The notes below the pieces were generated by a model. The model searched no databases and was not told where the DNA came from. It saw only the letters and a program-made list of their open reading frames with translations. A stretch of 64,000 nt of DNA. Source: an uncultured bacterium (GTDB lineage: Bacteria; Patescibacteriota; Patescibacteriia; UBA9570; XYC2-FULL-38-9). Made by a program: the position numbers and the translations under genes. Shown piece by piece: positions 1,279 through 62,641 of the stretch (its first letter is position 1; every line of letters begins with the position of its first letter). The stretch is from contig CALKUP010000015.1 in assembly GCA_937996685.1 (NCBI GenBank), positions 71,900 through 135,899 of the forward strand. The letters are read 5' to 3'.

Positions 1279-1283
1279 AGAGA

Positions 1284-2678: not shown

Positions 2679-2692
2679 ATGTGTATTCCTGT

Positions 2693-4528: not shown

Positions 4529-4537
4529 ATTCGTGAA

Positions 4538-4870: not shown

Positions 4871-4882
4871 AAGAGTATTCTT

Positions 4883-6344: not shown

Positions 6345-6367
6345 GTGAATGAAAGTTGATCCAGTAA

Positions 6368-6841: not shown

Positions 6842-6870
6842 ATAGTAATTAGTTAATTGTTATTAATTAT

Positions 6871-8880: not shown

Positions 8881-8890
8881 ACAGTGTGAA

Positions 8891-9175
8891 TTAGTTAATA
8901 TGTTCTAAAATGACCTTTTGGATATCAGCAGCTGAAAGTGATTTCTTGGCCGCTGCATCTTCTTTTTGCAATTGTTCTGTAATTGCACTTTGTTCTTTGC
9001 TGACCGCTGCTTCGACAACAGTGTCTTTGTCTTGCAAACGTTTTTCGAGCTCCTTCATGGCTGACGCGTGTTCAGCTTCTGATTTCTGCTCTTTTTGAGC
9101 CATTTCTGCTTTCAGATCCGACACCGCTTTCGCGTGGCGCTCTTCAAGCTCAATGAGTTCAACAATTTTTTGCAT
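8891..9175 (-). CDS. V-type ATP synthase subunit G/H (peripheral stalk), first gene of the operon
   Basis: 94 aa highly charged coiled-coil protein immediately upstream of ntpI. Confidence 0.5.
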   Translation of the reverse strand: MQKIVELIELEERHAKAVSDLKAEMAQKEQKSEAEHASAMKELEKRLQDKDTVVEAAVSKEQSAITEQLQKEDAAAKKSLSAADIQKVILEHIN

Positions 9176-9624
9176 GGTGAATTCAGTTAATTATATATAA
9201 ATAGTCGTCTTACAAACTACTTGTGTCATATCATATATGATTTTTCACGGAAAGTCAATAAAAACAGGCACAAAATACGGTTTTGCGACCCATCTTGTCT
9301 TGAAAAAGACAGTAATAATGACCTTTTTACAACTCGATCCTCCCACAGTCTGATGTTCGAGTTATCTATGGGGACCAAAGAACAATAGATTTGTTCACTC
9401 GTCTCCGTATATACTCGATAGGATCTGGTTGCCGTAAAAACAATCTGATATGAAATGAGCAAAAAGGAAATCCTTTTACGGAGCAACCGTACAACATGAC
9501 ATGGCTTTTGTCAATCCCTCATTATTCAGAATATCGAAGATTCTGCGCAATGAAGATTGCAGCATGCATTTCGAGGTGAAACACATGCTGTTGCGGCTCT
9601 ATTGCCGCTATCGTGACGAGTTGA

Positions 9625-12488: not shown

Positions 12489-12624
12489 TGCTTACTCCTC
12501 TGCTCTGTTACGGAATGTGAATGTGCGTCACAATACGCATACGCGTTGTGAAACCGTATAGAATTAGCACAGTCCTTGTGAAAATACAAGCAATAATAAC
12601 GACTGTGTGTATAAGATTATAAAA

Positions 12625-12770
12625 AGAAAAAAGCCCGCATCAGACAAACGTCATAGCGGGCACAAAAGAACAAAGGGATCTGAATGAATCGTTGTCAGAG
12701 ATATGACCGGAGGGTCCCAGGTAGCGGCAGGTCTGCCGCCGCCTACCTGGGGTTGTCTCGCTGTGAGGTC
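12625..12770. repeat. kup 3' trailer module, copy 1 (imperfect 36-nt hairpin plus rho-independent terminator); inverted copy of 25753..25895
   Basis: Near-identical to the reverse complement of 25753..25895 by direct comparison; contains cccaggtagcggcaggtctgccgccgcctacctggg and gcccgc...gcgggc followed by a T-run. Confidence 0.85.
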
Positions 12771-15149
12771 CTAGTGAGCGCTGATCCGGGGGCCAGCAGG
12801 GCCACCCAAGTGGACCGGCAGAGTCTCCTCTTCAATGCCGTCGTGATCCCCGAGGCCGAAGTAGTACTGCGCCGGGAAGGACAGGCGCGACATTGCGCGG
12901 TAAAGCGCGATTCCGATGCTGGAGTACCAGGGAGCGTCGCTGTCAACGATGATGTGGTCGTTGCCAACCACGATCTCACAGCTACCCGGATCAACGCTGA
13001 TCTGTCCGCTCTCCTTGAGCTCGGTCAGAACCTGCATGATGTCCGGCTGCTCAGCCCAGCCAACGCGGTAAATGACCGAGGTCACACCTTCGCTGAAATG
13101 GATGCAAGACACCCGGTTTCCGTTAGCGCGAGGAGTATCAAGCGGCTCCACCGTCAAGAACATAACGCGTTCGGGAACGGAACCGTGCCGACGAACGTAC
13201 TCGCTTGCCTGCAAGGGCAAAGACTGCTGAAGGCCTGTCACGCCAGTTGCTGACAAGAACGCAAACTTCCTCGCGGTCACCGGAAGTGAGCTGCTTGGAT
13301 TTTTCTGCGCATTCACCAGCTCTTCAAGCGTCATCGCACCTTTTTGCGCTTCTTGGATTGCGCTACGGATATGCTCCCTTGCGATCTTCCAGGACATCAT
13401 GACGACGTAGACGCAGAGACCCATTGCAACAGGGATCCAGGCCCCATCCGTGAACTTCAAGGCATTCGCAATGAAGTACGGCCCGTCAATGAAGACGATC
13501 AAGGAACCCCAAACCACACCAGCCTTCAACGCCCCCCACTTCCAGAGGTACCTGGAGATGAAGTACATGCTGACGCTAGTGATCAGCATCACCGTCGTCA
13601 CAGCCATGCCGTACGCTGCTGCGAGCGCGCTCGAAGTCTTGAAGACCAAGACAAGAAGCGCGCACACCGCGTACAGCATCCAGTTGACCGCGGGGATGTA
13701 GATCTGACCCTGATGATGATCCGATGTATGCAAGATCTCGAGCCGAGGCAGCAAGCCGAAGCTAATCGCTGCAACAGTAAGAGAAAAAGCACCGGATATC
13801 AGCGCCTGAGAAGCAATCACCGTCGCAGGTGTCGCCAGGAACACCATCGGCACCCGGAACATCTCCGGAACAATGCTGAAGAAGATGTTGCCCTCAATCG
13901 GGACACCTCCAGTAGCAATGAACGCTGCCTGACCACCGTAGTTCAGGAGCAGCGACGGCCCAACAATGAAGAACCAGCTCTTCTTGATCGCATCCAGACC
14001 GAAGTGTCCCAGGTCTGCGTACATCGCTTCAGTACCGGTCTCGGCGAGCACGGTCGACCCAAGTATTGCCATGTCGTTCAAGGCCAAAGCCATAAACGCC
14101 ATGCCGCCCACTGAACCGGCCAGGATTGGATGGTTGAAGAGGAAATCCAGAGCCGTCAGCGGATTCAGTGCTTGGATCAAGACCCACGGAGCGGCGGCGA
14201 GCGCCATTCCACCGAAAACAGCCAAGGAGATGAACCACGCAAGCATGATCCAACCAAAGATGCCTCCAATGAACTCCGTGCCCCTGCGCTGAATCGAGAA
14301 CAGCGCAGTCAGGATGGCGAGTGCCAGCGGCACGATGAACGAATCCATCGCAGGGTTCACGACCTTGAGACCTTCAAGGGCACTCAAAACCGAAACCGGA
14401 GGAGTCAGGCCGCCCTCACCGAAGAGGAAGGAAGCTGCGATTGGCAGAACCCGCTCAGCAATCAGCACAGAGATCGACGCCATGAAGCCAGCGCCTGCCA
14501 GCTTCTTCGCGTTGATCTCACGCATGAGGCCCATGAGAGCGAAGGTGCCGCCTTCGCTCTTCATGCTCGCACGCAAGACGAAGACCGTGTACTTCACGGA
14601 CACGACGAGCAGCAGGGTCCAGACGATGATCGAGAGAATGCCGAGAGCAGCAGACTGCATCTCCTGAGCCGGAATCACGAACGCCTCTTTGGCCTCCGTA
14701 TTGGTCAGGCAGTCTTCATTTCCTGCGCAGTGATGCTTCCAGGCCATCTCGTGCAGATGATGGAAGGTTTCGTTCATCGCGTAGAGCGGGCTCGTGCCGA
14801 TGTCGCCGTAGACAACACCAAGAGCACCAAGAAGGGCGGCTCCACCAGCAGCGGCATGCACCTCGGGAGAGAGGTGCGGAGTCGTCTGGGTAGTGAAACG
14901 ACCAGTCGCCTTTTGCCACCACGACTTTTCTTCGGGGGGCCAGTAGGTCAGGCTCTGCTCAAGAGCCAAGGGGTTGTCGTCAGTCTTCAAAGCCGAAGCT
15001 TCAACGGTCACGCTGACCGTAGTGGACGTCTGAGCCTCACGAGCATTGCGAGCCTCGATGTCATCCGCCATCTGCGGACCATCTGCATGAGCATCGCCAT
15101 CAGCATCGAGCTGATGACGAAGCCGCGTTTCATCAGGAGGCCTGGTCAT
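12771..15149 (-). CDS. kup: KUP/HAK/KT family potassium transporter (copy 1) with an N-terminal extension of about 95 aa; GC-rich
   Basis: GVVYGDIGTSPLY signature, 12-TM core and C-terminal cytoplasmic domain; start set at the ATG 15149 immediately after the conserved leader (ORF track extends to 15179). Confidence 0.8.
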   Translation of the reverse strand: MTRPPDETRLRHQLDADGDAHADGPQMADDIEARNAREAQTSTTVSVTVEASALKTDDNPLALEQSLTYWPPEEKSWWQKATGRFTTQTTPHLSPEVHAAAGGAALLGALGVVYGDIGTSPLYAMNETFHHLHEMAWKHHCAGNEDCLTNTEAKEAFVIPAQEMQSAALGILSIIVWTLLLVVSVKYTVFVLRASMKSEGGTFALMGLMREINAKKLAGAGFMASISVLIAERVLPIAASFLFGEGGLTPPVSVLSALEGLKVVNPAMDSFIVPLALAILTALFSIQRRGTEFIGGIFGWIMLAWFISLAVFGGMALAAAPWVLIQALNPLTALDFLFNHPILAGSVGGMAFMALALNDMAILGSTVLAETGTEAMYADLGHFGLDAIKKSWFFIVGPSLLLNYGGQAAFIATGGVPIEGNIFFSIVPEMFRVPMVFLATPATVIASQALISGAFSLTVAAISFGLLPRLEILHTSDHHQGQIYIPAVNWMLYAVCALLVLVFKTSSALAAAYGMAVTTVMLITSVSMYFISRYLWKWGALKAGVVWGSLIVFIDGPYFIANALKFTDGAWIPVAMGLCVYVVMMSWKIAREHIRSAIQEAQKGAMTLEELVNAQKNPSSSLPVTARKFAFLSATGVTGLQQSLPLQASEYVRRHGSVPERVMFLTVEPLDTPRANGNRVSCIHFSEGVTSVIYRVGWAEQPDIMQVLTELKESGQISVDPGSCEIVVGNDHIIVDSDAPWYSSIGIALYRAMSRLSFPAQYYFGLGDHDGIEEETLPVHLGGPAGPRISAH

Positions 15150-15395
15150 GGCATTTTCCCAACGAAGGTCGCGTGGCACTTGCCGACGCGAACAAAGACG
15201 ATATGGTCAAACGGCACTCGCCGCTGACAACCATCGCCTACACACAGATTTTCGGTCTGCATGTTCTCCGCCTGGTGCGTTACGCCAGCTAAGGGTCCTT
15301 TTGACGCTTTAAAGTTTTTTGTCGTTTGTTCGACAAACAACGATTCATTCATGTGAATGTGCACGTTGTTCGATCGGCCATGGTAAGGAAGAAAA
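15150..15395 (-). promoter_or_regulatory. Conserved kup leader, copy 1 (block A of about 80 nt, a variable hairpin, block B of about 120 nt, then ATG)
   Basis: Blocks A and B are near-identical (about 90-95%) to 23351..23592 upstream of the second kup, although the two coding sequences are only about 35-40% identical in protein. Confidence 0.6.
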
Positions 15396-15729
15396 AGCTT
15401 CTGCTTCTAATTTCTTTTCACGGCAAATCGAGCAACAAAAATGGACACAGCTCGCCTGCTATTGCGATATCTTTTTTCTCTTGATCTATAGTGAATTACC
15501 TACTGTTTTTCTGCCCTCCTTTATGGAGAGAAGTCGTGCGTCGCTCTATTACAGACCAAGATATACCAACAATGAAATGTTCAGGAATACGAGCGTATTA
15601 TTGCCCTGTTTTCCGGGGCAAATGTAACGCTAAAGCTTTTTTATGTCAATAGTTGATATATCAAACTGTGTATATATCAAAAGAACTCCGATTACTTCGG
15701 AGTTCTTCGAAAAAAATGAATCAACTATT

Positions 15730-16260
15730 CTATTTTTGAATCTCTGCTAACACTTGTTTTACAACATCAGCAGGCAGCAAATTATCTGTATCAATCACTG
15801 TCATACTATGACTTGTATAGAGCTCATTACGATCATTAAACAGCTGTTGAATATTGTTTGTAATCCGCTCTTGATCAGATTGTGTTGCTTGCGGATGGCT
15901 GCCAATAATCCGTTTTGCAAGTACTTCTGGAGAAGCCTTTAAATAAACGATGTGTAGTGCGGCTGAATTTTCTCGAAAATATTCCAAGTTCAATTCATTT
16001 TCAACAATATCTCCACTGCATGCCACGACTGTTGCATTAGCGTGTGTGCTAATATCACGACTCACATCAAGTTCCAATTCTTGCCACAATGAACGACGCA
16101 CAGCATACACTTCTTCTGTTGAATCAAATCCAGAACGCTCAAGTGTGACTGCGTCCATCTCAATAAAATCTGCATTCAACTCTTTTGCGAGCGCTTGTCC
16201 AACTGTTGTTTTTCCTGAACCAATCAGGCCGAATAAAAGAATTTTCATAAATAGTTTCAA
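15730..16260 (-). CDS. P-loop kinase, shikimate kinase/gluconokinase-like
   Basis: 176 aa; Walker A LIGSGKTTVG; the size and fold are typical of the AroK family. Confidence 0.5.
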   Translation of the reverse strand: MKLFMKILLFGLIGSGKTTVGQALAKELNADFIEMDAVTLERSGFDSTEEVYAVRRSLWQELELDVSRDISTHANATVVACSGDIVENELNLEYFRENSAALHIVYLKASPEVLAKRIIGSHPQATQSDQERITNNIQQLFNDRNELYTSHSMTVIDTDNLLPADVVKQVLAEIQK

Positions 16261-16266
16261 TCAAAT

Positions 16267-18039
16267 TTATTTTAAAATCATTGGAGCATCAGAATCGAAC
16301 TCGACCGTACTGCGGTTATGTTGAAAATTACGTTGACCAACGCGACTAATAAACAACATGACAATTGTTAATACACCAACGCGACCGATAAACATCATGA
16401 TTGCCATAATAACTTTCGCTGTCACACTAAATGCAGAATAATTTCCTGTCGCACCAGAATTAGAGGCGCCGTTAATGACGGCTGGTCCAATATTTCCAAG
16501 ATTTGCAATCGCTGCTGTAAACGCTGTTTCTAAATCCATTGTTGCAGATCCACCGTTCACAAAATAAATTGTTGCACTGGTGAGCGCAATTAAGACCGCG
16601 CCAGCGAAGAAAATCAAGAAGTAAATAATCATATTCACCAAAATCAACCCAGCTGTTTTGTTGTCATATCGCATTCCATCAACCACGAATGAATCGTCAT
16701 TGCGTCCATGAATGACATTGAGAATTTGCATTTTGCAATATTTGTACAACACAACAAACCGCAATGTTTTCAAACCACCGCCAGTTGAACCAACAGATCC
16801 ACCCATGAGGTATGACAAGAATAAAATTGCAATTGCACCAATTGGCCACACAGAGAAATCTGTATTTGCATATCCAGTTGTTGAAACAATTGTTGTCACA
16901 CTGAAAAACGCATAACGCAAATTATCAAGCGCAGTTCCAATGCGGTCAGGCCATGTCATGAGCACTGCCCAAATTCCAAGAGTTGAGAGAATAATGAACG
17001 CCCAAAATGCACGGAACTCTGTGTTGTTAAACATTGCACTGGCTTTCTTTTTGAACATCAACATATACCACAGCGCAAGATTCATTCCGGCAAATGCCAT
17101 GAAAAATGCGAGCACCCATTCAGACATTGGATTTTGTAATCCACCAATCACCCGTGTGCCGTCTGGCAATGTTTGCATCAACCCAACACTTGTATCGTAC
17201 ACACCAAAGCCACCGGTTCCGAGAGCGCCAAACATCATTGTCAGCGCATCAAACACATTGTCGTACCATTGCGTATAAGGAGTTACACGGAAATACGCAC
17301 CAGTAATCAGCAGTAACACAGTACAAATCACACTCAATACAACATAGACTTTCAAAAATTCTGCACCTGAATTAATCGCCTCTTCCTCATCTTTGTAGAG
17401 CATGAAGACTGGAGTCTCGGCTTCAGAGTTAATGATTTCACCACGACGTGTTTGAAAACCGCGCCATAGTGTAATGATCATATATGCAATACCCATGCCA
17501 CCAACCCAATGAGTCCACGATCGATAGAAGATTACCGAACGTGGAAAGGCTTCAACACTTGGCAAGATACTTGTTCCAGTTGTTGTGAACCCAGACATTG
17601 CCTCATAAAATCCATCAACATATTGACGCCAGAGGCCAAATGTTTCTGCTTGCGCTGGAACTGGGAAACCACTCAAGATGAAATAAAAACTTGAGATAGA
17701 ACACGCAAAAAACCACACAAGCAAAATCACGAATGCGCCATGTTTTAAATCAAGCTTGGTTTGCACTGGATAGACTTTGCGAATAATTTGCCCGATCGCA
17801 AAAGCACCAAAACTTACAAGAGCAGCCCATACAATGTTCATCGGTTGCTCTACTGGAAATCGCGGATCATTCATTCCAATGTAAAACCAACTGACAAGTA
17901 ATGTGAGCACAAAAGACAAGCCAAGAATCACTTGCACTTCTAATGCTGGGACAAGCACGCTGACAACTTCATCAAACGCACGTTTCAAAAAATTCCCTTC
18001 TTTTTTTGTTTGTCGACTCTCTTCTTGCGACATATTCAT
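16267..18039 (-). CDS. TrkH/KtrB/HKT-family cation (K+) transporter
   Basis: 590 aa polytopic protein; selectivity-filter-like motif AMSGFTTTGTS and repeated membrane-pore-membrane organisation. Confidence 0.6.
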   Translation of the reverse strand: MNMSQEESRQTKKEGNFLKRAFDEVVSVLVPALEVQVILGLSFVLTLLVSWFYIGMNDPRFPVEQPMNIVWAALVSFGAFAIGQIIRKVYPVQTKLDLKHGAFVILLVWFFACSISSFYFILSGFPVPAQAETFGLWRQYVDGFYEAMSGFTTTGTSILPSVEAFPRSVIFYRSWTHWVGGMGIAYMIITLWRGFQTRRGEIINSEAETPVFMLYKDEEEAINSGAEFLKVYVVLSVICTVLLLITGAYFRVTPYTQWYDNVFDALTMMFGALGTGGFGVYDTSVGLMQTLPDGTRVIGGLQNPMSEWVLAFFMAFAGMNLALWYMLMFKKKASAMFNNTEFRAFWAFIILSTLGIWAVLMTWPDRIGTALDNLRYAFFSVTTIVSTTGYANTDFSVWPIGAIAILFLSYLMGGSVGSTGGGLKTLRFVVLYKYCKMQILNVIHGRNDDSFVVDGMRYDNKTAGLILVNMIIYFLIFFAGAVLIALTSATIYFVNGGSATMDLETAFTAAIANLGNIGPAVINGASNSGATGNYSAFSVTAKVIMAIMMFIGRVGVLTIVMLFISRVGQRNFQHNRSTVEFDSDAPMILK

Positions 18040-18371
18040 AGAATGTGTTAGAGTCTGCAGCTTGTGCTTTGAAAAATTTCCTGCACAAAAACAGACGTAT
18101 ATCGAATTAAATTACCCTTGACAATGAATGGATGTACTAGCGACATGTATCATTTTTGTAAAAAAATTCCACATGTCGATAGTCATCTGCGCAAACCTTT
18201 TTGTTCGCACAAACAATCAACAACGTATCATTTTTTTATTACGTTGTCGCAAGTACAGTGCATTGCACACGAGCATAGCACAGACTACTCTTGTTTTTTT
18301 TACGCGTCAAGAAACGAAAAAAAACGGAAGCTAGTCCGTTTTTTTTATTTGTAGAAAAATGCTTGTTTTTA

Positions 18372-20018
18372 TTAACCGATTTGCACTTTTTGTGCACCCG
18401 CGTGATCTTCTGATGGCGGATGGTTATGGAAACGTCGTTTCCATGGAAGTGCTGCAAGTAATGTCAACGGTCCAACGCGACCAAATAACATTGTTGCAAT
18501 CAACAAGAACTTTGAGAACGGAGTCAAAATTGCTGCGAAACTTGTGACGCCGCCAGCAAAGCCCATTGAAAGACCAACAGTACCGAACGCTGAGAAAATT
18601 TCAAAGATAACTTTCAAGAAGTTGAATGTTGGATCTGGAGTCATCAAGAATTTATATTCAACCAGTGTAATCAAGAATGTAACAACACCGATGAATGACA
18701 AACTAAAGAAGAACAAACGAATTGCATGTGATACAGCAAATTTACTGATCACACCTCCAAATAAACGCACTGGTTCGTTTGGTTTTTTGAACCAATCAAG
18801 AATGTATCCAACGAGAACTGCAAAGGTTGGGATTTTGATACCACCACCTGTACCAGCTGGATTGGCACCGATATACATCAAGAGCATGTACAAGAATAAT
18901 GTCGCAGCACCAAGCGCTCCGATATCAATCGTATTGAAACCGGCTGTTCGAGTTGAAGTACTTTGGAAAAATGCGATGAGCACTTTTTGCCACACTGTGT
19001 GACCTTCCATGATTGGATTATTCCATTCAACGATCAACGGGATAATTGTTCCGATACTGAGTAATGCGAATGTTCCCCAGATCGCAACACGCAATTGGAC
19101 TGGAGAAGCCATAACGCCGTTGACTGATTTTTCTAACGCTTGTTGTTTTGCACTTTCACGTTTGCGAATCACACGACTCATTGCAGCATGTCCAGCAATT
19201 AATACTGGATAGCCAATACCGCCGAGGATAATCAAGAATGCAATTGTGAGAGAAATAACAGAATCGTTCACGAAATTTACAAGATTGTTATTCATCAATC
19301 CAAAGCCAGCATTGTTAAACGCTGAAACTGAATGGAAGAGAGACCACCACCATGGGTTCAAATTGTTAATCATTGCTGGATCAACAAAAAATTGCAGGTG
19401 CACACCCATAATCACTGTCGCGAGACCTTCAATTAAGAAAGTGTACATAAACACATGTTTCAACATGGTTCCAACTTCATGTCCTTCTGCATCTAAAATA
19501 TTTGCAAGTAAATTTTTAAATGAAGAACCTTCAGACAATCCTTGAACAACCGCGAATGCAAACAATGAAGTAAACACGATAATCCCAAGACCGCCCATTT
19601 GAATCAAAATCATTGTGATGATTTGACCGCCGAGGGTAAATTCTGAAAAGTCTGTTGATGTCAGACCAGTTACACACAGCGCTGAAACAGCAGTAAACCA
19701 CGTGTCGATAAATTTTTCACCTTTGTACTGAATGTTTTGCACAAACGTGTGTGTTTGTGTCGGCGCTTCACCAACAGTCCCGCTAAACAATGGTGTTGTT
19801 GGAGTGACATTCACTTCTTGCAAGACAGCTTGCTTTGCGTGGACATCGCGATTTTTTTCTGTTCCGTATAAAATACCACCACCAATCAGTGACATTAATA
19901 CAAACGAAATGATCGTTGCCTCAGCAGCTGTAAAGAACGAAAATTTTTCAAACAAGGATTCAACAATTTTTTTCATATTAAAAATACTCTTTCTTAAGTC
20001 ACAATAACTGACCCACAA
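18372..20018 (-). CDS. TrkH/KtrB-family K+ transporter
   Basis: 548 aa; CVTGLTSTDFS and STRTAGFNTIDI motifs typical of KtrB/TrkH pore loops. Confidence 0.65.
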   Translation of the reverse strand: MWVSYCDLRKSIFNMKKIVESLFEKFSFFTAAEATIISFVLMSLIGGGILYGTEKNRDVHAKQAVLQEVNVTPTTPLFSGTVGEAPTQTHTFVQNIQYKGEKFIDTWFTAVSALCVTGLTSTDFSEFTLGGQIITMILIQMGGLGIIVFTSLFAFAVVQGLSEGSSFKNLLANILDAEGHEVGTMLKHVFMYTFLIEGLATVIMGVHLQFFVDPAMINNLNPWWWSLFHSVSAFNNAGFGLMNNNLVNFVNDSVISLTIAFLIILGGIGYPVLIAGHAAMSRVIRKRESAKQQALEKSVNGVMASPVQLRVAIWGTFALLSIGTIIPLIVEWNNPIMEGHTVWQKVLIAFFQSTSTRTAGFNTIDIGALGAATLFLYMLLMYIGANPAGTGGGIKIPTFAVLVGYILDWFKKPNEPVRLFGGVISKFAVSHAIRLFFFSLSFIGVVTFLITLVEYKFLMTPDPTFNFLKVIFEIFSAFGTVGLSMGFAGGVTSFAAILTPFSKFLLIATMLFGRVGPLTLLAALPWKRRFHNHPPSEDHAGAQKVQIG

Positions 20019-20116
20019 TACACATTGCAGTCAGTATTTCTTAAGAAGAGTATAAAAACGAACCCCTTGAGTCAATCAATTTTTATCAACAAATATATCT
20101 AATTTTAGCTATATCA

Positions 20117-21448
20117 TTAAGCGATATACCACCAATAGAGCATGCCAAATGTCACCAGCCCATTAATGAATACAAGCGGGAAACCATACGCCAAATATTT
20201 CAAGAAAATAACATGGAATTTTTCTCGTTCTGCTTGCCCGAGAGCAACAACGTTACACGCTGCCCCAATTGGAGATCCAGCGCCGCCAAGTGATGTTCCA
20301 AGGTTGAGTGCCCACCATAACGGATAGACGAAAATCCCTGCTTTTGCCATTGCTTGAATCGCACCGACCATCGCGATGTTGTATGGCACGTTATCAATAA
20401 AGGTTGAAATTGCGCCAGAGCCAACTGATGTAAAGAATAATAATTTTCCTAAATCTCCATCAGTCAATTCAACGAGCTTCTCTGCTAAAAATGCAATAAC
20501 TCCAGTATGCTCTAGCCCACCGACAATAATAAACAGGCCCATGAAAAAGAAAATAATTTCCCAATCAATCAGCTTTGTAAAAACGTCGTGCATATCTTTT
20601 TTAAACGCGATAATCGCAAGGAACGCGCCGGTGAGTGTCAGTGTTGCGTTGTCGAGCGTGATGCCAGTTGCCTCAGTAATATATTCACGTGTCACCATTA
20701 ATAAAATGACAACGATTAATAGTGGGACACCGAATTTCAAAATTTGACGATCTTTAATTGCGGCTTTTGGATTAAACAATTTTAAGCTTTCAGTTTTCAC
20801 CTCAACGGCTTTCAGTTGTTTATTAAAGACAAGTAATGAATAGCTCATTACAACAACAGACAAGATCCATACAATAGCGCCAGAATTTCGCACCACTTCT
20901 GCAAAGCCAAGCCCAACAGTTTTGGCTTGATAATAGGTTGTCGGGTCAGAGATTGGCGTCATCGCACCACCGATATTTGCCATGGTGATCATCACAAAAA
21001 AATACGGCAGAAATGGCAACTTCAATTCTCGAATCAAGACAATGAGCACGGGAGTTAAAATCAATACAGTCGGAATATTTGAAAGCAGCGCTGTCATTAC
21101 TAATGACAAATACCCAAACACAATCAATAAAAGACGCGGCTTCCCTTTCACCAGTTGTACTAATCGAATGGCAAGTGACTCAAAAAGACCGGATTCTTTG
21201 ACGATGCCAACCAGCACCATCATCCCGATAATAAACCCTAAGACGTCAATATTTTTCTTCACAAACTCAAGCGCGCCGGCCTGGGAACTCGCTTCAACGG
21301 TTTTGAACACTTGCAAATAAATGAGGATCGCAGCGCCAAGCATCACAACGATCACTTTGTTAATTTTTTCAGCGATAAGAAAGGCGTACGTGACAAACAA
21401 TACAACGATGGCCATTGCTCCGTATACTGTAATATGATCTGGATTCAT
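20117..21448 (-). CDS. ArsB/NhaD/CitMHS-superfamily ion permease
   Basis: 443 aa; 12-14 TM with internal duplication; resembles the anion-permease ArsB/NhaD fold. Confidence 0.55.
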   Translation of the reverse strand: MNPDHITVYGAMAIVVLFVTYAFLIAEKINKVIVVMLGAAILIYLQVFKTVEASSQAGALEFVKKNIDVLGFIIGMMVLVGIVKESGLFESLAIRLVQLVKGKPRLLLIVFGYLSLVMTALLSNIPTVLILTPVLIVLIRELKLPFLPYFFVMITMANIGGAMTPISDPTTYYQAKTVGLGFAEVVRNSGAIVWILSVVVMSYSLLVFNKQLKAVEVKTESLKLFNPKAAIKDRQILKFGVPLLIVVILLMVTREYITEATGITLDNATLTLTGAFLAIIAFKKDMHDVFTKLIDWEIIFFFMGLFIIVGGLEHTGVIAFLAEKLVELTDGDLGKLLFFTSVGSGAISTFIDNVPYNIAMVGAIQAMAKAGIFVYPLWWALNLGTSLGGAGSPIGAACNVVALGQAEREKFHVIFLKYLAYGFPLVFINGLVTFGMLYWWYIA

Positions 21449-21467
21449 AAAAGTGTTATTTCTGTTT

Positions 21468-21914
21468 TTATTTCATTGCGTTTAATAAAACGCTTCGCAA
21501 TTCTGTTCGAGTGAAAATTCCGAGGAGCTTCCCATCTTCAAGCACTGGAACGACATATAAATCGTTATGCAAAAAGTCTGCGATAATTGTCATCACATCG
21601 GCGTCTTTTGTGACAGACAAAAAATCAGTTCGCATCACATCGCCAACGGTTTTTGTTGCAACACTTTTCGCTTCTTCTGTAAAAAACTCTGGAGTAAACA
21701 TTGCAGCAGCAAGCGCTTCATTACTCTTAAATGAAGGCGGCACAACTGCAGCAGCGATATCTTGGACTGATACCAAACCTTGTACACTTCCATTTGTATC
21801 AACAACCACAAAGGCATTGTGGTGTTCGTCAACCATTTTTTGCGCGACATCACGGAGAGTCATTTCAGCAGAGACTGTTGAAACACCGGTTTTGTACAAA
21901 GCTTCGATTGTCAT
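21468..21914 (-). CDS. CBS-pair domain protein
   Basis: 148 aa; two CBS motifs (e.g. VVDTNGSVQGLVSVQDI); same size class as ligand-sensing CBS proteins. Confidence 0.7.
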   Translation of the reverse strand: MTIEALYKTGVSTVSAEMTLRDVAQKMVDEHHNAFVVVDTNGSVQGLVSVQDIAAAVVPPSFKSNEALAAAMFTPEFFTEEAKSVATKTVGDVMRTDFLSVTKDADVMTIIADFLHNDLYVVPVLEDGKLLGIFTRTELRSVLLNAMK

Positions 21915-22061
21915 AGAATAAGCGCATTTCGCGCGATTAAAAATAATAAAGAGTGTTTAAATAATGCAAATTGATTGGGGATCAAAAGAGAAAATGCAAA
22001 CGTTAGAAATACTACTCCCACAAAAAACAGCCGTCAAGAGATTTTGACGGCGTGCGGTGGA

Positions 22062-22532
22062 TTAATATTCAACGCCTAAAATATCGGCCATTGCATGTTT
22101 GATTTCTGAACGAGACAGGAGTCCAACAACTTCACGTTGTTTGTTGATCACTGGCACATAACGGACATGTTTTTTTGATGCCATTGCGGCCGCTCGAACA
22201 AGTGGCGCGTCTTCATCAATCACACATCCTTCAACAGATGTAGTCATTTCTGAAATTGGCGCATCTGCCGCTTCTTTGACGGTCATTGCGAATGATTCGT
22301 CGTTCACAAATGTCGCGAGACTTGGATTGCTAATCAAATATTGTGGCATTAATGCGTTCATCATGTGAAATGAATCAATCACTCCCACGACTTCATTCTC
22401 AGCATTTGTTACCACTAAGCCATTTGTTTTTGCTTGCACCATCATTGCGAGCGCCTCTCGAAACGTCGTTGTTTCAGGAATTGTCACAATTTGTGTCCGC
22501 ATATATTGCTTTACTGTCATATATTTCATCAA
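22062..22532 (-). CDS. CBS-pair domain protein
   Basis: 156 aa; two CBS motifs (VVTNAENEVVGVIDSFHMM..., VINKQREVVGLLSRSEI). Confidence 0.7.
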   Translation of the reverse strand: MMKYMTVKQYMRTQIVTIPETTTFREALAMMVQAKTNGLVVTNAENEVVGVIDSFHMMNALMPQYLISNPSLATFVNDESFAMTVKEAADAPISEMTTSVEGCVIDEDAPLVRAAAMASKKHVRYVPVINKQREVVGLLSRSEIKHAMADILGVEY

Positions 22533-22608
22533 GAAAATAATCTGATTATAGCGATAGTATATATGACTATCCTCTATTCAAGCAATGGAGCTATCTCTCA
22601 GGCAGTCC

Positions 22609-23016
22609 TTATTCTTCATCCTCAAGTGCCTGATCAACAGGTTTTTCAAAGGTTGATTGATGAAATAGCGTAATAATATGATACAAACGAGCAATTTCTT
22701 GAGATAGTAATACATTTCCAGCAGCAGTCAATTGATAGTAGCGACGATTTTGCTCTTGAAAGGTTGGGTATAAATCTGCATCAGCATCATTTGCCACCTC
22801 TTCAATCACCCCTTCATCCAGCATTTTCTTAATTAGTCCATAAACGCTTCCTGGACCGATTTTAATAAGACCGTCTGTGTCTTTTCGGACACGCTGCATA
22901 ATCCCATATCCATGTTTTTTTCCATCACGCATGGTAAACAAAAAATAAAAGACCAAAGGCGTCAACGGCAACCGAATTTTTTCTATTTTTTGCTTCATGT
23001 ACTGTATTATAGGCAC
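22609..23016 (-). CDS. padR: PadR-family transcriptional regulator
   Basis: 135 aa; winged-helix PadR signature (GYGIMQRV...GPGSVYGLIKKM). Confidence 0.75.
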   Translation of the reverse strand: MPIIQYMKQKIEKIRLPLTPLVFYFLFTMRDGKKHGYGIMQRVRKDTDGLIKIGPGSVYGLIKKMLDEGVIEEVANDADADLYPTFQEQNRRYYQLTAAGNVLLSQEIARLYHIITLFHQSTFEKPVDQALEDEE

Positions 23017-23045
23017 CTCAAAACGGTTGTCTAGTGGAGTATATC

Positions 23046-23185
23046 AACTTTGATATATATAGTATATCAGAAAAAAAATACATATTTTACTGTAATCGTT
23101 TTATTTCACTTTTTTTATTAAAAACCCTTTGTTTTAGATATATCGATGTTTGATATATATCTATATTTTTTATTGATATACATGT
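23046..23185. promoter_or_regulatory. Cluster of TGATATA-type inverted repeats in the padR/kup intergenic region (candidate PadR operators)
   Basis: TGATATAtatagTATATCA (23048..23066); AGATATAT-N11-ATATATCT (23127..23153); ttgatatacatgtg (23172..23185). Confidence 0.4.
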
Positions 23186-23207
23186 GTAAAATTATACTTT
23201 TTTTTGA

Positions 23208-23236
23208 TTGACATGACCTATCGCGGGGTATAAATT
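23208..23236 (+). promoter_or_regulatory. Sigma70-like promoter for the second kup (TTGACA, 16-17 nt spacer, TATAAAT)
   Basis: Read directly from the sequence; it would give a 5'UTR of about 350 nt that covers the conserved leader. Confidence 0.45.
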
Positions 23237-23350
23237 TTGCTCGAAATTGAATGGAAAGTTTCCATTATAAGCGTACTTCCTAGAGAAATTGCAATACCAT
23301 TTTGTTGCTCGATTTGCCCTGAAAAGAAAGACGCGTTTTTTACACCTTCT

Positions 23351-23592
23351 CTTCCTTACCATGGCCGATCGAACAACGTGCACATTCACATGAATGAATC
23401 GTTGTTTGTCGAACAAACGACAAAAACCTACAACGCGCAAGAGGCCTTAACCACTATTAGCGCTAGTGGACGGAGAACACACGGACCAAAAATCTGTGCG
23501 TAGGCGATGGTTGTCAGCGGCGGGTGCCGTTTGACCATATCGTCTTTGATCGCGTCGGCAAGTGCCACGTGACCTTCGTTGGGAAAATACAG
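23351..23592 (+). promoter_or_regulatory. Conserved kup leader, copy 2 (blocks A and B)
   Basis: See copy 1; ends immediately at ATG 23593. Confidence 0.6.
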
Positions 23593-25752
23593 ATGGACAG
23601 ACTCAAATCGTGGCTTGGGTGGCTCGCAAAGCTTCCAAGTTCCTGCAAGGTCCTCTTCTTCGCCGTTCTTGCGGCGTTGAAGGTGGCCGCAATCATCCTC
23701 GAGAAGAGGACGAGGTCGCTCGTCATTGCGACCTGGAACGGGCTGATGACCTATGTCTTCTGGTCTGAAGATGCTGCACCTCAGCAGGCAAAAGACGGTC
23801 ACGGCCATCACCCGGAAACGGGGTGGTTCAGCCTTCGCACACTCTGGAATTCGTTGAGCGCACTCGGCATCGTCTACGGCGATATCGGCACGAGCCCGCT
23901 CTACGCTCTGCGAGCCGCACTTGGCTGGTTCAGGGACTCGTCCGGAGTTGTGAGCGGACATCGAGTTCCGATCATCTTGGACAACGTCCTTGGCGTCGTC
24001 TCCTTGATCAACTGGACGCTGCTCATCGTTGTGACCCTGAAGTACGTGGCGTTTGTCCTCCGCGCTGACAATCGCGGCGAGGGCGGCATCATGTCGCTGA
24101 TGGTTCTCGTGACCAGCACCTTGAAACGGCGCGGCTACATGCTCGCGATGACCGGAGCAACGCTCGCTGGCGTCTTCGGCTCGGCCCTGATCTACGGCGA
24201 CGGTGTTCTGACTCCCGCAGTCAGCGTCCTCGCCGCTGTTGAGGGCCTTGGAACAGCCTACCCAATCCTCAGCTTCGTGGTGGTTCCGCTGGCCTGCCTG
24301 ATCCTGATCGGGCTGTTCAGTGTTCAGTCGAAGGGCACCGGCAAAGTCGGCAAGATCTTCGGGCCGATCATGCTGCTCTGGTTCCTCTTCCTTGGGGGTG
24401 AAGGGCTCTATAACATTCTGGTCTACAAGCCGGAGATGTTGTATGCCCTGAGCCCGGTGTACGCGATCAAGTTCCTGATCGCAAACCCGCTCCTCGGAAG
24501 CTCGGTCATGGGCGGTGTGTTCCTGGTGGCAACCGGTGGCGAAGCACTCTACGCCGACATGGGCCACTTCGGCCCCAAGGCTATCAGGATCGCATGGATG
24601 TTCGTCGTCGCCCCAAGTCTGATGCTTCAGTACATGGGACAAGGCGCGATCGTTCTCGTGAACCCAGAAGCGAAGTTCGACCCGTTCTTCGCCGCTGTTC
24701 ATCTCGAGGGAGAAGCGCTCGCGGTGTTCGTCATCTTCCCGACGATCGCGACGATCATCGCGTCTCAGGCTCTGATCTCCGGTGTGTTCTCGCTGACGGC
24801 GCAGGCAATCCAGCTTGGTCTGCTTCCGCGCATGCCGGTGTATCACACCGACGCGAACGAGCGTGGCCAGATCTATGTCCCGGTGATCAACTGGGTTGTC
24901 TGCCTGATGGTCATACTGACCGTCATTGGTTTCGGCAGCTCGGGTGCACTTGAGTCGGCCTACGGCATCGCCGTCTCTCTGTGCATGCTCTTCACGACGG
25001 GCCTGATGATGTTCGCCAGCTTCTACCTCTGGCACTGGCGTGCTTGGGTGGTTGCGGCAGTCTGGGGTCCAATCCTCATCCTCGAAACGTTCTTCGTCTA
25101 CGCAAACGGCCAGAAGATCGCTCACGGCGGGTGGTATCCGTTGCTCATGGGCGCCGTGCTCTTCACGATCATGACCACCTTCAAGAGGGGTCAGGAGATC
25201 AAGGGCTGGTACATGAGCCGGATGTCTTTGCCGGTTGAGCGCTACCTTGCTGCAGCTCAGGACGCGTTCGTCAACCCAAAAACAGCCATCGCCTTGACAG
25301 CCGCTGCGGACCGCGTTCCGTTGGCGCTGCGGGCGATCCTTCTCGCCCAAAACGTCCGCTACGCACAAACCGTTCTTGCGACGGTCGTCACGGCTGACGA
25401 ACCGTACTGGACCGGAGATCGCGTCACTTGGCGCGACCTCGGCAACGGCATGTGGGAGGCGATCATCCATTACGGCTTCATGGAACAGAGCGCGATCAAT
25501 GTCCCTCTTGCACTGGCGCAGAGCCATGTGCCTGAAGGGGTCGACATCGATGGCATCTACATCCTGGGCCGTGATGCGGTAGTCCCTCATCAGGACGTTG
25601 GCGCGCCTGTTGAAGACGATCAGCCTGCTCCGATGGCCTATTGGCGCGAGAAGCTCTTTGAGCTGATGATCGCCAACGCGCAAAACGCGGTCACCTGGTT
25701 CAAGGTGCCGCCTGGACGCTTCCACCAGATCGGCATTTCGGTTGTGATCTAA
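23593..25752 (+). CDS. kup: KUP/HAK/KT family potassium transporter (copy 2); GC-rich
   Basis: GIVYGDIGTSPLY signature; 719 aa from the ATG that follows the conserved leader (ORF track begins at 23524 inside the leader). Confidence 0.8.
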   Translation: MDRLKSWLGWLAKLPSSCKVLFFAVLAALKVAAIILEKRTRSLVIATWNGLMTYVFWSEDAAPQQAKDGHGHHPETGWFSLRTLWNSLSALGIVYGDIGTSPLYALRAALGWFRDSSGVVSGHRVPIILDNVLGVVSLINWTLLIVVTLKYVAFVLRADNRGEGGIMSLMVLVTSTLKRRGYMLAMTGATLAGVFGSALIYGDGVLTPAVSVLAAVEGLGTAYPILSFVVVPLACLILIGLFSVQSKGTGKVGKIFGPIMLLWFLFLGGEGLYNILVYKPEMLYALSPVYAIKFLIANPLLGSSVMGGVFLVATGGEALYADMGHFGPKAIRIAWMFVVAPSLMLQYMGQGAIVLVNPEAKFDPFFAAVHLEGEALAVFVIFPTIATIIASQALISGVFSLTAQAIQLGLLPRMPVYHTDANERGQIYVPVINWVVCLMVILTVIGFGSSGALESAYGIAVSLCMLFTTGLMMFASFYLWHWRAWVVAAVWGPILILETFFVYANGQKIAHGGWYPLLMGAVLFTIMTTFKRGQEIKGWYMSRMSLPVERYLAAAQDAFVNPKTAIALTAAADRVPLALRAILLAQNVRYAQTVLATVVTADEPYWTGDRVTWRDLGNGMWEAIIHYGFMEQSAINVPLALAQSHVPEGVDIDGIYILGRDAVVPHQDVGAPVEDDQPAPMAYWREKLFELMIANAQNAVTWFKVPPGRFHQIGISVVI

Positions 25753-25895
25753 ACAGCGAGACAATCCCAGGTAGGCGGCGGCAGACCTGCCGCTACCTGG
25801 GACCCTCCGGTCATATCTCTGACAACGATTCATTCAGATCCCTTTGTTCTTTTGTGCCCGCTATGACGTTTGTCTGATGCGGGCTTTTTTCTTAT
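25753..25895. repeat. kup 3' trailer module, copy 2 (hairpin plus terminator)
   Basis: Near-identical to the reverse complement of 12625..12770. Confidence 0.85.
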
Positions 25896-25974
25896 AAAAT
25901 TCCCACTCTTTTTACCTGAACACACAGCAAAAATCAGATTGACAGAAGGGCTATCTCTTTGTATTCTGAGGGCA

Positions 25975-27714
25975 ATGAAACGACAAAAACTCAACCAATG
26001 GTACGCAACGGCAATTTGCGGAAATGACATCATGAGCTCGACTTTATATGTCTCTGGAATTGCCATTATTTTCGCCGGAGCCTATGCGCCACTCGTCCTT
26101 CTCGCTATTGCCTTAGTCTTATTTTTTTACAAAGCCGTTTACACTGAAGTCGTTGAAGCCCTCCCAGTCAACGGCGGCGCCTACAACTGCTTACTCAATG
26201 GGACCTCAAAAACAATTGCGGCCATTGCTGGAATCATGAACTTTTTGTCCTATATCGCAACTGCTGTCTTGTCAGCAAAAGTCGGCATAGGGTATCTGCA
26301 TACAATCGCACCAATGGTGCCAGTAATCCTCGGCACGATCTTGTTATTATTATTCTTTTTATTACTCGTTCTCTCAGGCATTAAACACGCCGCAAAAATT
26401 GCGCTAGTGATTTTCATCTTCCACATTATTACACTCACAACACTGGCAATTGTTGGGACGATCTTTTTCTTGAATGGTCATTCGTATTTCATGGAAAATG
26501 TTGCGTATACAAAAACAATGATGGAAGGTCACGGCGGCCTCTGGATTGGCCTCTACCTCGCATTCTCTGCTTCCCTCCTTGGTGTCTCTGGTTTTGAAAG
26601 TTCAGCAAACTTTGTGGAAGAACAAGGCAAAGGAGTCTTCCGTAAAACCTTACGCAACATGCTGATTGGTGTGGCGATTTTTAACCCACTTATGGCATTA
26701 GTTGTTCTCAACAGCCTGCCATTTGAAGCGATTGTCAACGCAAAGGACTTTTTACTCGCTGACGCTGGTTTGCAGATGGGTGGCGAATTCTTGAAATATA
26801 TGGTCGCTATTGATGCAGCGCTTGTGCTCTCTGGTGCAGTTCTAACGTCGTATGTTGGAGTTAGTGGATTATTGTCTCGCATGACTTTGGACAACTGTCT
26901 GCCAAGCTATTTCGGAAAGATGAACAAACACGGTGCGTACCCTCGTATTCTCATTGCATTTTTCTTACTCTGTGGCGCAATTTTATTAGTGACAAAAGGA
27001 AACCTCTTATCACTGGCTGGTATTTACACTATTGCCTTTTTAGGTGTGATGACACTGTTTGGTATTGGTAATTTAATTTTGCGGCAAACCCGCACAGATC
27101 TGCAGCGTCCATATAAAGCGCCGTTGCTTTTTGTTGGACTTGCGTCAGTTGCGACATTATTTGGAATCATTGGAAATATTCGCATCGACCAAGAAAATCT
27201 CCAATTCTTTGAATTATATTTCATCCCGGCAGTCATCATTGTGTTGATCATGGTCTATCAAGATCACATTACAAAAGCCCTTGTGCGAATCACCGAGCAA
27301 TACACATGGTTGCATGGTATACACCGTTGGTTATTAAAGCACTTCAAAGATCAATCAGAAGGCAATCTTGTGATTTTTATTCATCACGCTGCTCGATTAC
27401 ACGCTGTGCTTGATTATATTAACCGAAATGAAACAAGTGAAAATATCACGATCGTCCACTGCAATGACCCACGAGATATCCTCCAATTAGAGTTTAAAAA
27501 AATCCAAAACATCCTGCCTCTTTTAAAAGAAGTTGGTATGTTTTCTCATTTTACATATCGCTTAGAGTACGTTGAACAAGAGTTCAGCGCACAGGCAATT
27601 GACGCTGTTGTTCGTGATTTAAAAATCAATAAAAATCGTGTCATGATTGGTGCAATCCGTGACTTCAAACGGTTTAATTACGATGAGCTGCGTGGTGTTC
27701 GGGTGATTATTTAA
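25975..27714 (+). CDS. APC-superfamily transporter with a C-terminal cytoplasmic domain, possibly a KimA-like K+ importer
   Basis: About 579 aa from Met 25975; 12 TM followed by a soluble domain of about 170 aa; the neighbourhood is dominated by K+ transporters. Confidence 0.45.
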   Translation: MKRQKLNQWYATAICGNDIMSSTLYVSGIAIIFAGAYAPLVLLAIALVLFFYKAVYTEVVEALPVNGGAYNCLLNGTSKTIAAIAGIMNFLSYIATAVLSAKVGIGYLHTIAPMVPVILGTILLLLFFLLLVLSGIKHAAKIALVIFIFHIITLTTLAIVGTIFFLNGHSYFMENVAYTKTMMEGHGGLWIGLYLAFSASLLGVSGFESSANFVEEQGKGVFRKTLRNMLIGVAIFNPLMALVVLNSLPFEAIVNAKDFLLADAGLQMGGEFLKYMVAIDAALVLSGAVLTSYVGVSGLLSRMTLDNCLPSYFGKMNKHGAYPRILIAFFLLCGAILLVTKGNLLSLAGIYTIAFLGVMTLFGIGNLILRQTRTDLQRPYKAPLLFVGLASVATLFGIIGNIRIDQENLQFFELYFIPAVIIVLIMVYQDHITKALVRITEQYTWLHGIHRWLLKHFKDQSEGNLVIFIHHAARLHAVLDYINRNETSENITIVHCNDPRDILQLEFKKIQNILPLLKEVGMFSHFTYRLEYVEQEFSAQAIDAVVRDLKINKNRVMIGAIRDFKRFNYDELRGVRVII

Positions 27715-61441: not shown

Positions 61442-61447
61442 GAGGCC

Positions 61448-62636: not shown

Positions 62637-62641
62637 ACTAT

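Follow-up and report, generated by a model that had tools for sequence, protein, structure and literature searches.

In a stretch of 64,000 nucleotides (nt) of contig CALKUP010000015.1, from an uncultured, Peribacteria-like member of the Patescibacteriota (GCA_937996685.1), two KUP-family potassium transporter genes, kup1 and kup2, are enclosed by one and the same pair of untranslated modules, a structured 5′ leader and a 3′ trailer, and this pair recurs in a related genome around a TrkH-family gene whose product is not homologous to Kup. Thus, one 5′/3′ module pair encloses three different coding sequences (CDSs) from two transporter families in two species. The whole stretch of 64 kb is referred to here as the window. 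The finding is not explained by duplication, by chance or by a known RNA family, and leader and trailer are best regarded as a new pair of untranslated region (UTR) modules for K+ transporter genes, narrow in distribution, for which there is evidence both of functional constraint and of recombinational copying. The reading that we prefer, and to which we give an even chance, is that leader and trailer are paired UTR modules, specific to this lineage, that serve K+ uptake genes at the RNA level; the two copies would have been homogenised recently and would permit exchange of the CDS between the modules.

Near-identical flanks around dissimilar coding sequences

The two enclosed CDSs are the following.

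12771..15149, minus strand: kup1, KUP-family K+ transporter of 792 amino acids (aa) counted from the ATG, with K_trans and K_trans_C domains (Pfam)
23593..25752, plus strand: kup2, KUP-family K+ transporter of 719 aa, with K_trans and K_trans_C domains (Pfam)

The first-pass annotation of this DNA had judged the two proteins to be only about 35–40% identical, and the estimate holds: BLASTP gives 35% identity over 640 aa, and a codon alignment gives 37.8% amino-acid, 50.3% nucleotide and 37.8% third-position identity, the third positions being saturated. It had also maintained that the flanks are conserved far beyond the coding DNA, which nucleotide alignment bears out (92–100% against 50% DNA identity). 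A plain recent gene duplication, in which the coding DNA would be as similar as the flanks, is not what is seen at kup1 and kup2, as no 150-nt window of the codon alignment exceeds 59% identity. The flanks are in fact the longest inverted repeats of the window (blastn E values of 1e-69 to 1e-88), and a chance origin of their identity is excluded. No close orthologs of either gene carrying the flanks were found, the next matches after the exact protein being 46% identical for kup2 (among them Gemmatimonadaceae, Vicinamibacterales and Polyangiaceae) and 40–41% for kup1, where the named ones are bacteria of the candidate phyla radiation.

The leaders and trailers are composed of the following parts.

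15316..15440, minus strand: kup1 leader 5′ domain, with block 0 (15412–15440), a variable apical loop (15391–15411) and block A (15316–15390)
15152..15315, minus strand: kup1 leader 3′ domain, with a variable hairpin (15272–15315) and block B (15152–15271)
23300..23426, plus strand: kup2 leader 5′ domain, with block 0 (23300–23328), a variable apical loop (23329–23351) and block A (23352–23426)
23427..23589, plus strand: kup2 leader 3′ domain, with a variable hairpin (23427–23469) and block B (23470–23589)
12624..12764, minus strand: kup1 trailer, with a GC-rich imperfect hairpin (12715–12752), a spacer holding a complement to leader helix P2 (12681–12695), and a terminator stem with its T-run (12627–12661)
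25753..25893, plus strand: kup2 trailer, with the hairpin (25765–25802), the spacer holding the P2 complement (25822–25836), and a terminator stem (25856–25884) followed by a T-run to 25890

Leader homology extends over about 290 nt (15440 to 15152, reverse complement, against 23300 to 23589) and is a mosaic, in which block 0 is identical at 28 of 29 positions, variable loop 1 at 35%, block A, containing CATTCACATGAATG, at all 75, variable hairpin 2 at 49% and block B at 110 of 120. The high identity of blocks A and B had already been recognised in the first-pass annotation, which missed the 29-nt block 0 upstream and let block B run up to each ATG, 3–6 nt too far. The leader 5′ domain is predicted to fold into three helices, P1, P2 (CAUUC/GAAUG) and P3, and block B of the kup1 leader into three more; the 3′ end of this block B, CUUCGUUGGGAAAAU, holds the ribosome-binding site. 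The trailers are identical at 140 of 141 positions (12624–12764, reverse complement, against 25753–25893), and each consists, as first described, of a hairpin and a terminator. The hairpin measures 38 nt and not 36, within the 20–40 nt of extragenic palindromes of the repetitive extragenic palindromic (REP) type, and the trailer begins directly at the stop codon of kup2 and 6 nt past that of kup1, the sole mismatch adjoining the stop. Both trailers end in an intrinsic terminator (GCCCGC...GCGGGC followed by TTTTTT), and the 3′-UTR segment carries ACAACGAUUCAUUCAG.

In each unit, 15 nt of the 3′ strand of P2 (AUGAAUGAAUCGUUG) are also perfectly complementary to a segment of the trailer spacer (CAACGAUUCAUUCAG), at 23391–23405 and 25822–25836 for kup2 and at 15337–15351 and 12681–12695 for kup1. 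With a blastn E value of about 0.03–0.05 and no counterpart seen in the related genome described below, this match may be due to chance; it could otherwise reflect 5′–3′ pairing, or a 3′-UTR-derived RNA acting on the leaders. Leader–trailer duplex energies (RNAduplex) barely beat those of shuffled sequences, and long sequences gave bloated interior loops.

A coding explanation for the leader was tried and rejected. A small open reading frame (ORF) in block B (MVVSG[E/G]CRLTISSL...) has three differences between the copies, all three non-synonymous or stop-creating, and block B is absent from the related genome; a longer conserved reading frame is ruled out by a 2-nt indel in variable loop 1.

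The same modules around a TrkH-family gene

The native TrkH of the window (18372–20018) has a single match among species-representative genomes, in a metagenome-assembled genome (MAG) of Candidatus Peribacteria (locus L001, 64% identity), and in a large protein collection no relative comes closer than P0122 (GCA_964492735.1) with 70% identity, the rest being at most 67% identical. The 21.6-kb locus of this closest relative, L010, is the nearest relative found. In L010, a 168-nt spacer 5′ of a GC-rich TrkH-family gene (11780–13276) matches block 0 and block A with 73% identity over 119 nt (blastn E values of 2e-12 and 2e-10), one of the very few matches that the two genomes have outside coding DNA. 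The P1 pairing is kept there by two compensatory changes (UA to CG and CG to GU) together with three one-sided compatible ones, and the P2 stem CAUUC/GAAUG is kept around a loop that changes from ACAU to UUAAUC, i.e. from 4 to 6 nt. Moreover, an A-to-G change in ACAACG fits both P1, where the partner changes from U to C, and the alternative helix ACAACG/CGUUGU, where it gives a G-U pair. The variable hairpin and block B are absent from L010, and the sequence adjoining the ribosome-binding site is kept (UUCUCGUUGGAGAAUCACAUG vs CCUUCGUUGGGAAAAUACAGAUG).

The 3′ side is conserved as well. The L010 gene is followed, 7 nt past its stop codon, by a GC-rich hairpin and then by a terminator (ACUCGCG...CGCGAGU with UCUUUUU). 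Nowhere else in L010, on either strand, is there a better local match to the window trailer hairpin, and three compensatory pairs are seen in it; the 50-nt trailer spacer of the window is missing.

The first-pass annotation had offered two explanations for the conserved flanks, namely selection on a cis-acting RNA or DNA element, or modular exchange of cargo genes between fixed 5′ and 3′ modules. Both find support in L010. The leader 5′ domain and the trailer hairpin persist there with compensatory pair changes, a retained P2 stem and G-U pairs, as a cis-acting element would, and the cargo is a TrkH-family gene and not a kup, as modular exchange would have it. Since the L010 element starts 28 nt past the stop codon of a preceding co-oriented gene, it appears to be transcribed and not to be a promoter. 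Like the kup1 cassette, that of L010 is placed between a shikimate-kinase-like (SKI) gene and the V-type ATPase operon; this common position is consistent with replacement of the cargo in place. The intergenic DNA beside the SKI gene, next to the cassette, could not be aligned between the window and L010. We also observed that the non-coding DNA upstream of the small gene preceding the V-type ATPase operon is about 75% conserved (window 9190–9479 against L010 15846–16058).

Evidence for action at the RNA level

The leaders of kup1 and kup2 are predicted to adopt the same multi-helix fold, with z-scores of -2.3 and -5.3 against shuffled controls, and the trailers reach -3.8 and -4.0. Half of the ten differences between the two copies of block B fall in predicted stems and are all pairing-neutral, the other five falling at unpaired positions. 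The two scrambled leader segments are hairpin tips, and in variable hairpin 2 the stems are wholly different yet paired (CUGG...CCAG vs CCACUA...UAGUGG). About ten G-U pairs occur in the structures; these would be A-C mismatches on the opposite strand, so that the structures are specific to the sense strand. In all three cases the element lies 5′ of a K+ transporter gene (kup1, kup2 and the TrkH-family gene of L010), as do leaders of the ydaO class, and a pyrimidine stretch adjoining the ribosome-binding site is visible in the leader together with alternative pairings.

Recent copying and the question of function

Block B and the 50-nt trailer spacer are 92–100% identical between the two units of the window, yet both are absent from L010. 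Long-term constraint can thus not be the sole cause of this identity, and recent copying or homogenisation is needed in addition; here the first-pass annotation, in which strong selection was one of two sufficient causes, has to be amended, as selection alone does not account for the 99–100% identity. The leader as a whole follows the same pattern, with 92–100% identity within the window against 73% or absence in L010, as expected of gene conversion or recent copying. Divergence grows toward the CDS (no difference in the 75 positions of block A, 10 in the 120 of block B, and the sole trailer mismatch beside the stop codon), a gradient that fits recombination tracts ending at a heterologous CDS, or else a CDS that was imported with the inner parts of slightly diverged flanks.

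The two cassettes are arranged as inverted repeats, with the leaders 8 kb and the trailers 13 kb apart. Recombination between the leaders would invert the block of TrkH, CitMHS, CBS and PadR genes between them and would swap the non-homologous promoters of kup1 and kup2.

If recency explains so much of the identity, the flanks might have no function at all: they would be ordinary UTR and terminator DNA copied recently between the kup loci, by duplication with CDS replacement or by two gene-conversion events, and their likeness to L010 would come from shared ancestry of one intergenic region. The identity of 99–100% over segments that are unconserved across species is indeed a signature of recency and not of constraint, the family is very small, and other non-coding DNA, namely the V-type ATPase upstream region, is also about 75% conserved between the genomes. 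Nonetheless, the L010 flanks enclose a non-homologous gene, for which vertical inheritance of one locus is insufficient. Furthermore, the differences cluster in loop tips, the stems are compensated in leader and trailer alike, and the intergenic DNA adjoining the cassette, from SKI to the downstream gene, is unalignable between the genomes. We therefore consider functionless flanks rather unlikely, and retain functional modules that were homogenised recently as the preferred reading.

A second pair of shared flanks with different cargo

The same arrangement, unrelated in its cargo, was found a second time in the window, in two minus-strand units at 60950–61538 and 62662–63163 that have a RhuM/Fic gene (61650–62636) between them.

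61456–61538 and 63081–63163, minus strand: second-pair 5′ module, 96% identical, starting at a TATGAT -10 box with TTGAC 17 nt upstream
60950–61037 and 62662–62749, minus strand: second-pair 3′ module, 91% identical, ending in a hairpin and a T-run terminator

The 3′ module begins at the stop codon or a few bases past it, and in one of these units (unit A) directly at it. The cargo consists of unrelated small membrane proteins of 135 and 101 aa (BLASTP E = 10), encoded at 50–54% GC against 41% in the neighbours. One UTR pair around different imported cargo may thus be a habit of this lineage, and the pair at 60950–63163 hints that a mechanism in which the UTRs serve as a portable frame is general.

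Foreign composition of the enclosed genes

The window has a GC content of about 41–45%, and four of its genes stand out sharply: NhaB, kup1, kup2 and the gene at 9625–10710, which encodes a secreted protein of 361 aa with no Pfam match. Their GC content at third codon positions (GC3) is 0.69–0.77 against 0.32–0.43 in native genes, and the spacers between them fall back to 35–40% GC. The kup1 CDS has 57–58% GC with a GC3 of 0.69 and the kup2 CDS about 60% with 0.76, and by comparison of GC3 with the host genes both are GC-rich imports. The leader 5′ domain is host-like in composition (41% GC), in contrast to the GC-rich cargo. Long antisense ORFs accompany both genes, one of 801 aa over kup2 (23428–25833, minus strand) and one of 365 aa over kup1 (14130–15227, plus strand); these are probably typical of GC-rich coding DNA and not genes.

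Single genes of 56–65% GC sit inside genomes of 40–45% GC in the window and in L001, L010 and a further related locus, L012, and most of them are ion transporters. In L001, such genes encode a Na+/H+ exchanger, a TrkH and a Kup (59–65% GC; 8000–9500, 12300–13855 and 14787–16877), in L010 the TrkH paralog (57% GC; 11780–13276), and in L012 an uncharacterised protein (61% GC; 3247–4494), each within a low-GC genome. This looks like repeated import gene by gene, and a relative with 57% GC throughout (L013, GCA_964439155.1) could represent the type of donor. A break of synteny with L010, at 9479 of the window, marks one edge of the inserted GC-rich block.

GC-rich genes in a low-GC contig may also raise the suspicion that a metagenome assembler joined the genes of another organism through repeats. 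The assembly is that of an uncultured organism, the records place the exact proteins on one 168-kb contig, and repeats of 140–290 nt could confuse which kup sits where. On the other hand, an independent Logan assembly has the exact kup2 protein on a contig of 2399 nt, as expected if it was broken at the same repeats, and the independently assembled L001, L010 and L012 also carry GC-rich genes in low-GC contigs, ion transporters in the case of L001 and L010. In addition, the L010 cassette has the same modules, the junctions lie exactly at start and stop codons, and reading frames and terminators are intact. An assembly artefact is thus scarcely credible.

Are the units mobile cassettes?

Foreign cargo within conserved flanks is also what would be expected if the units of leader, CDS and trailer were cargo-carrying mobile cassettes, with flanks acting as recombination or transposition ends for an enzyme encoded elsewhere, of the IS200/IS605 type or with attC-like sites. 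In favour of this, three different cargo genes in two genomes lie within one and the same pair of flanks, imperfect hairpins lie near both ends, the 15-nt perfect inverted match joins the leader and trailer of each unit, the cargo is compositionally foreign, and the second flank pair holds unrelated cargo beside the RhuM/Fic gene. Yet no integrase, transposase, TnpA/TnpB or RAYT domain was detected in the scanned ORFs of the window, and direct reading of the homology boundaries showed no terminal inverted repeats or target-site duplications. There are just two copies in 64 kb and one in 21.6 kb, the G-U pairs tie the structures to the sense strand, and the units close with a terminator of the usual kind. 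L010 shows no counterpart of the 15-nt match, and plasmid and viral collections gave no matches. All in all, we regard mobile cassettes as decidedly unlikely, and exchange of CDSs between transcribed UTR modules remains the reading that we prefer.

Distribution and relation to known RNA families

Two covariance models were built, R1 from the leader 5′ domain and R2 from the trailer hairpin, and both were searched against the window and the related loci L001 and L010–L018, about 200 kb altogether. Each model finds only the three cassette copies (kup1, kup2 and L010). The first-pass annotation had stated that scattered additional copies of the flanks would mark them as a generic repeat, and no such copies were found by the models in this DNA. 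Exact-word scans gave no match for a 22-mer of block A in species-representative genomes and none for block A or the trailer hairpin in viral contigs, and a distant-mode search of a plasmid collection returned no match for leader or trailer. A 21-mer of block B did occur at 8 metagenomic loci, all of which proved to be chance matches of 21–25 nt in unrelated DNA of 60–67% GC. The leader of the native trkH (TrkH590 leader, 18039–18340) was considered as a fourth member, as it shares CGACAACG...CGTTGTTG...GTTTGTGCGAACAAA, and was rejected with an R1 score of only 4.5–6 bits with filters off.

Searches with Rfam gave nothing at gathering score across the whole window. The first-pass annotation had seen no resemblance to a ydaO (cyclic di-AMP, c-di-AMP) riboswitch core, a judgement made by eye which Rfam confirms: the ydaO family (RF00379) has no match at E ≤ 10 in 12500–26000 or in the 381-nt leader alone. 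With the models of Rfam 15, including those of the Na+, Li+, Mg2+ and Mn2+ riboswitches, leader and trailer give only sub-threshold chance matches to microRNA- or snoRNA-like hairpins.

In L001, the GC-rich trkH and kup genes have long leaders with the short motifs ACGGCCAGARTCCCTGATRAGC, GGGCGNCTCGGCCC and ACAGGAGRAAACA in common, the sequence being otherwise different. They may represent another shared leader of K+ transporter genes in a different genus. The common segments are the following.

11826–11850 with 14338–14362: L001 common leader motifs
12201–12230 with 14650–14680: L001 common leader motifs

Possible upstream control of the two kup genes

Upstream of the shared leaders, the kup loci are non-homologous, and each has its own promoter-like site there.

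15621..15649, minus strand: kup1 promoter-like site, TTGACA, 17 nt, TACATT, about 170 nt upstream of the shared leader
23208..23236, plus strand: kup2 promoter-like site, TTGACA, 17 nt, TAAATT, about 60 nt upstream of the shared leader, in DNA of 26% GC
15653..15680: cluster of the palindromic motif TTGATATA / TTGATATATCAA, directly upstream of the kup1 -35 box
23040–23057, 23150–23157 and 23173–23180: copies of TTGATATA / GATATATC in the intergenic region between the PadR gene and kup2
22609..23016, minus strand: PadR-family regulator gene, divergent from kup2 (Pfam)

Across the window, 1.5 copies of the octamer TTGATATA (core palindrome GATATATC / TTGATATATCAA) would be expected and 10 are present; 7 of the 10 lie in the two kup upstream regions, which are otherwise unalignable. 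These sites adjoin the -35 boxes and the divergent PadR gene; the motif was not found in L010. From its sequence and placement, TTGATATA is likely to be an operator common to both kup upstream regions, which suggests that kup1 and kup2 may also be under common transcription control. PadR is a candidate binder of these motifs, by inference only.

These observations bear on another possibility, namely that block A is itself a DNA operator, for PadR for example, at the palindrome CATTCA-CA-TGAATG, and that the RNA folds are incidental. The palindrome lies inside the 75-nt stretch that is identical in both copies, the PadR gene adjoins kup2, and the TTGATATA clusters indicate common DNA-level control of both kup promoters. 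The comparison with L010 speaks against it, as the half-sites are kept there at a spacing (the P2 loop of the RNA) of 6 nt instead of 4, a shift that would not be compatible with a dimeric operator. Moreover, the element lies 60–170 nt downstream of the predicted promoters and, in L010, between two co-oriented genes; the conserved stretch is about 120 nt long and includes compensated pairs over long range, and the separate TTGATATATCAA motif upstream of the -35 boxes is a better candidate for an operator. We consider an operator in block A highly improbable, and the leader is read below as an RNA module.

Gene neighbourhood

The kup genes belong to a cluster for ion homeostasis which, by Pfam assignment, also contains NhaB, two TrkH-family genes, CitMHS, two CBS proteins and the PadR gene; the V-type ATPase operon lies at 661–8880. 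Elsewhere in the window, two minus-strand ORFs with no Pfam match (39965–41533 and 42862–43554) have a stretch of 80–85% identity near their 3′ ends (40095–40288 and 42992–43191), which is probably a C-terminal domain common to paralogs.

Proposed mode of action and its weight

The modules could act as follows. The core of the 5′ module would consist of a long closing helix P1 with a variable tip, the hairpin P2 (CAUUC-loop-GAAUG) and the hairpin P3. Four short segments of it, S1 to S4 (GUUGC, ACAACG, CGUUGU and ACAAAC), could form mutually exclusive pairings, S1:S2 with S3:S4 or else S2:S3. In response to a signal of K+ status, the core would take one of these two folds and thereby set access to the ribosome-binding site through the adjoining pyrimidine stretch (CUUCG or UUCUC), and the longer leader of the window might in addition control read-through at the block B hairpin with its downstream UUUGUU. 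The 3′ module, with its post-stop GC-rich hairpin and intrinsic terminator, would determine where the mRNA ends and how stable it is. The modules would be kept 92–100% identical by gene conversion or recent copying from one inverted copy to the other, while double crossovers within both modules would swap one CDS for another (kup1, kup2, trkH). As the modules are the only homologous DNA around unrelated CDSs, it is there that homologous recombination can act, and a CDS exchange anchored in them would explain why homology ends at the start and stop codons and why the imported cargo is GC-rich.

It is the gene association that points to K+ status as the signal, which we infer from the transporters that the leaders precede. 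To our knowledge, no riboswitch or other RNA that senses K+ itself has been validated, and an association with transporter genes is of the kind used to nominate one. That the leader is a true ligand-binding switch is nevertheless unlikely. We would give a similarly low probability to the furthest extension of this reading, in which the 120-nt P1-P2-P3 domain would be the sensor of a new riboswitch-like class for K+ status in bacteria of the candidate phyla radiation and would form, with its 3′ hairpin partner, a portable expression frame into which imported transporter genes are slotted by UTR-anchored recombination, in effect a general way of bringing foreign genes under host control.

Several points weigh against the preferred reading of homogenised RNA-level modules. 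No match to R1 or R2 was found in L001 or L011–L018, whose TrkH proteins are 60–67% identical, so that the family of leader and trailer may be very young and narrow. The leader covariation comes from three sequences with an effective number of 1.25 and an RNAalifold covariation term of about 0; with three copies in two genomes, two of them near-duplicates, it rests on a handful of pairs. The absence of block B from L010 leaves half of the window leader without comparative support. Finally, the reading leaves unexplained how a foreign CDS was initially joined so precisely to the modules.

If the preferred reading is true, the leader would define a new family of structured RNAs associated with K+ uptake genes in the Patescibacteria, a group that is poorly understood, and the modules would be a clear natural case in which short functional UTRs, and not flanking genes, are the homology anchors for swaps of whole CDSs. 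This would explain how compositionally foreign genes come to be placed precisely behind host expression signals. It would also show concerted evolution restricted to non-coding modules, while the paralogs that they enclose are no longer recognisably similar in their DNA. The analysis yields R1 and R2 as two ready covariance models.

Comparison with known systems

The c-di-AMP riboswitch (ydaO-yuaA, RF00379) controls K+ transporter genes such as kimA, ktrA and kdpFABC (PMC6488665; PMC9337991). The window leader resembles it as a structured 5′ leader that precedes K+ uptake genes of several unrelated transporter families and presumably acts at the transcript level. It differs in its architecture, one long closing helix and two hairpins as opposed to the pseudo-twofold architecture of ydaO, in being paired with a conserved 3′ module, and in its small number of copies, three being known from two uncultured genomes; even at E ≤ 10, neither its sequence nor its structure matches the family. 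Riboswitches for metal ions are likewise found upstream of cation-transporter genes, for Na+ (DUF1646 motif, PMC9337991) and for Li+ (nhaA-I, PMC9646797). Here too the likeness is that of a leader RNA before genes for monovalent-cation transporters, in a cluster with NhaB, two TrkH, two Kup and CBS proteins; the window leader has no Rfam match and far fewer representatives than any validated class.

On the 3′ side, the trailer recalls REP sequences and bacterial interspersed mosaic elements (BIMEs) in that a GC-rich, imperfectly palindromic segment of about 38 nt lies between the stop codon and the terminator, just behind the former, a position from which protection of the mRNA 3′ end would be expected. 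Hairpins so near to a stop codon can also affect translation termination. Unlike REP and BIME sequences, the trailer is not dispersed in multiple copies, as R2 finds it only behind the three cargo genes in the roughly 200 kb searched; it is always paired with the 5′ leader, and no RAYT-type transposase was seen.

With respect to mobile elements, the units share with integron cassettes a variable single-gene cargo followed by a conserved imperfect palindrome, as in attC sites. They differ from these cassettes in their long, structured and conserved 5′ side, their own terminator and their own promoter-like site upstream; they lie 8 kb apart and inverted, not arrayed, and no IntI or other integrase domain was detected in the scanned ORFs. 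Nor do they resemble an IS200/IS605-type element or another transposon, having no transposase domain in those ORFs and dissimilar end hairpins, with the internal 15-nt inverted match as the only link between the ends.

Parallels to the proposed exchange may be sought in concerted evolution by gene conversion, where, as here, the copies of the flanks within one genome are more alike than those of different species, and in cassette replacement within conserved flanks, as in capsule and O-antigen loci, where, as here, non-homologous cargo of foreign composition is enclosed and homology ends at the edge of the cargo. What sets the window apart from capsule and O-antigen loci is that a single gene is anchored by short UTR modules (290 and 140 nt) and not by housekeeping genes on either side, that two copies coexist, inverted, in one genome, and that the anchors themselves appear to be functional RNA.

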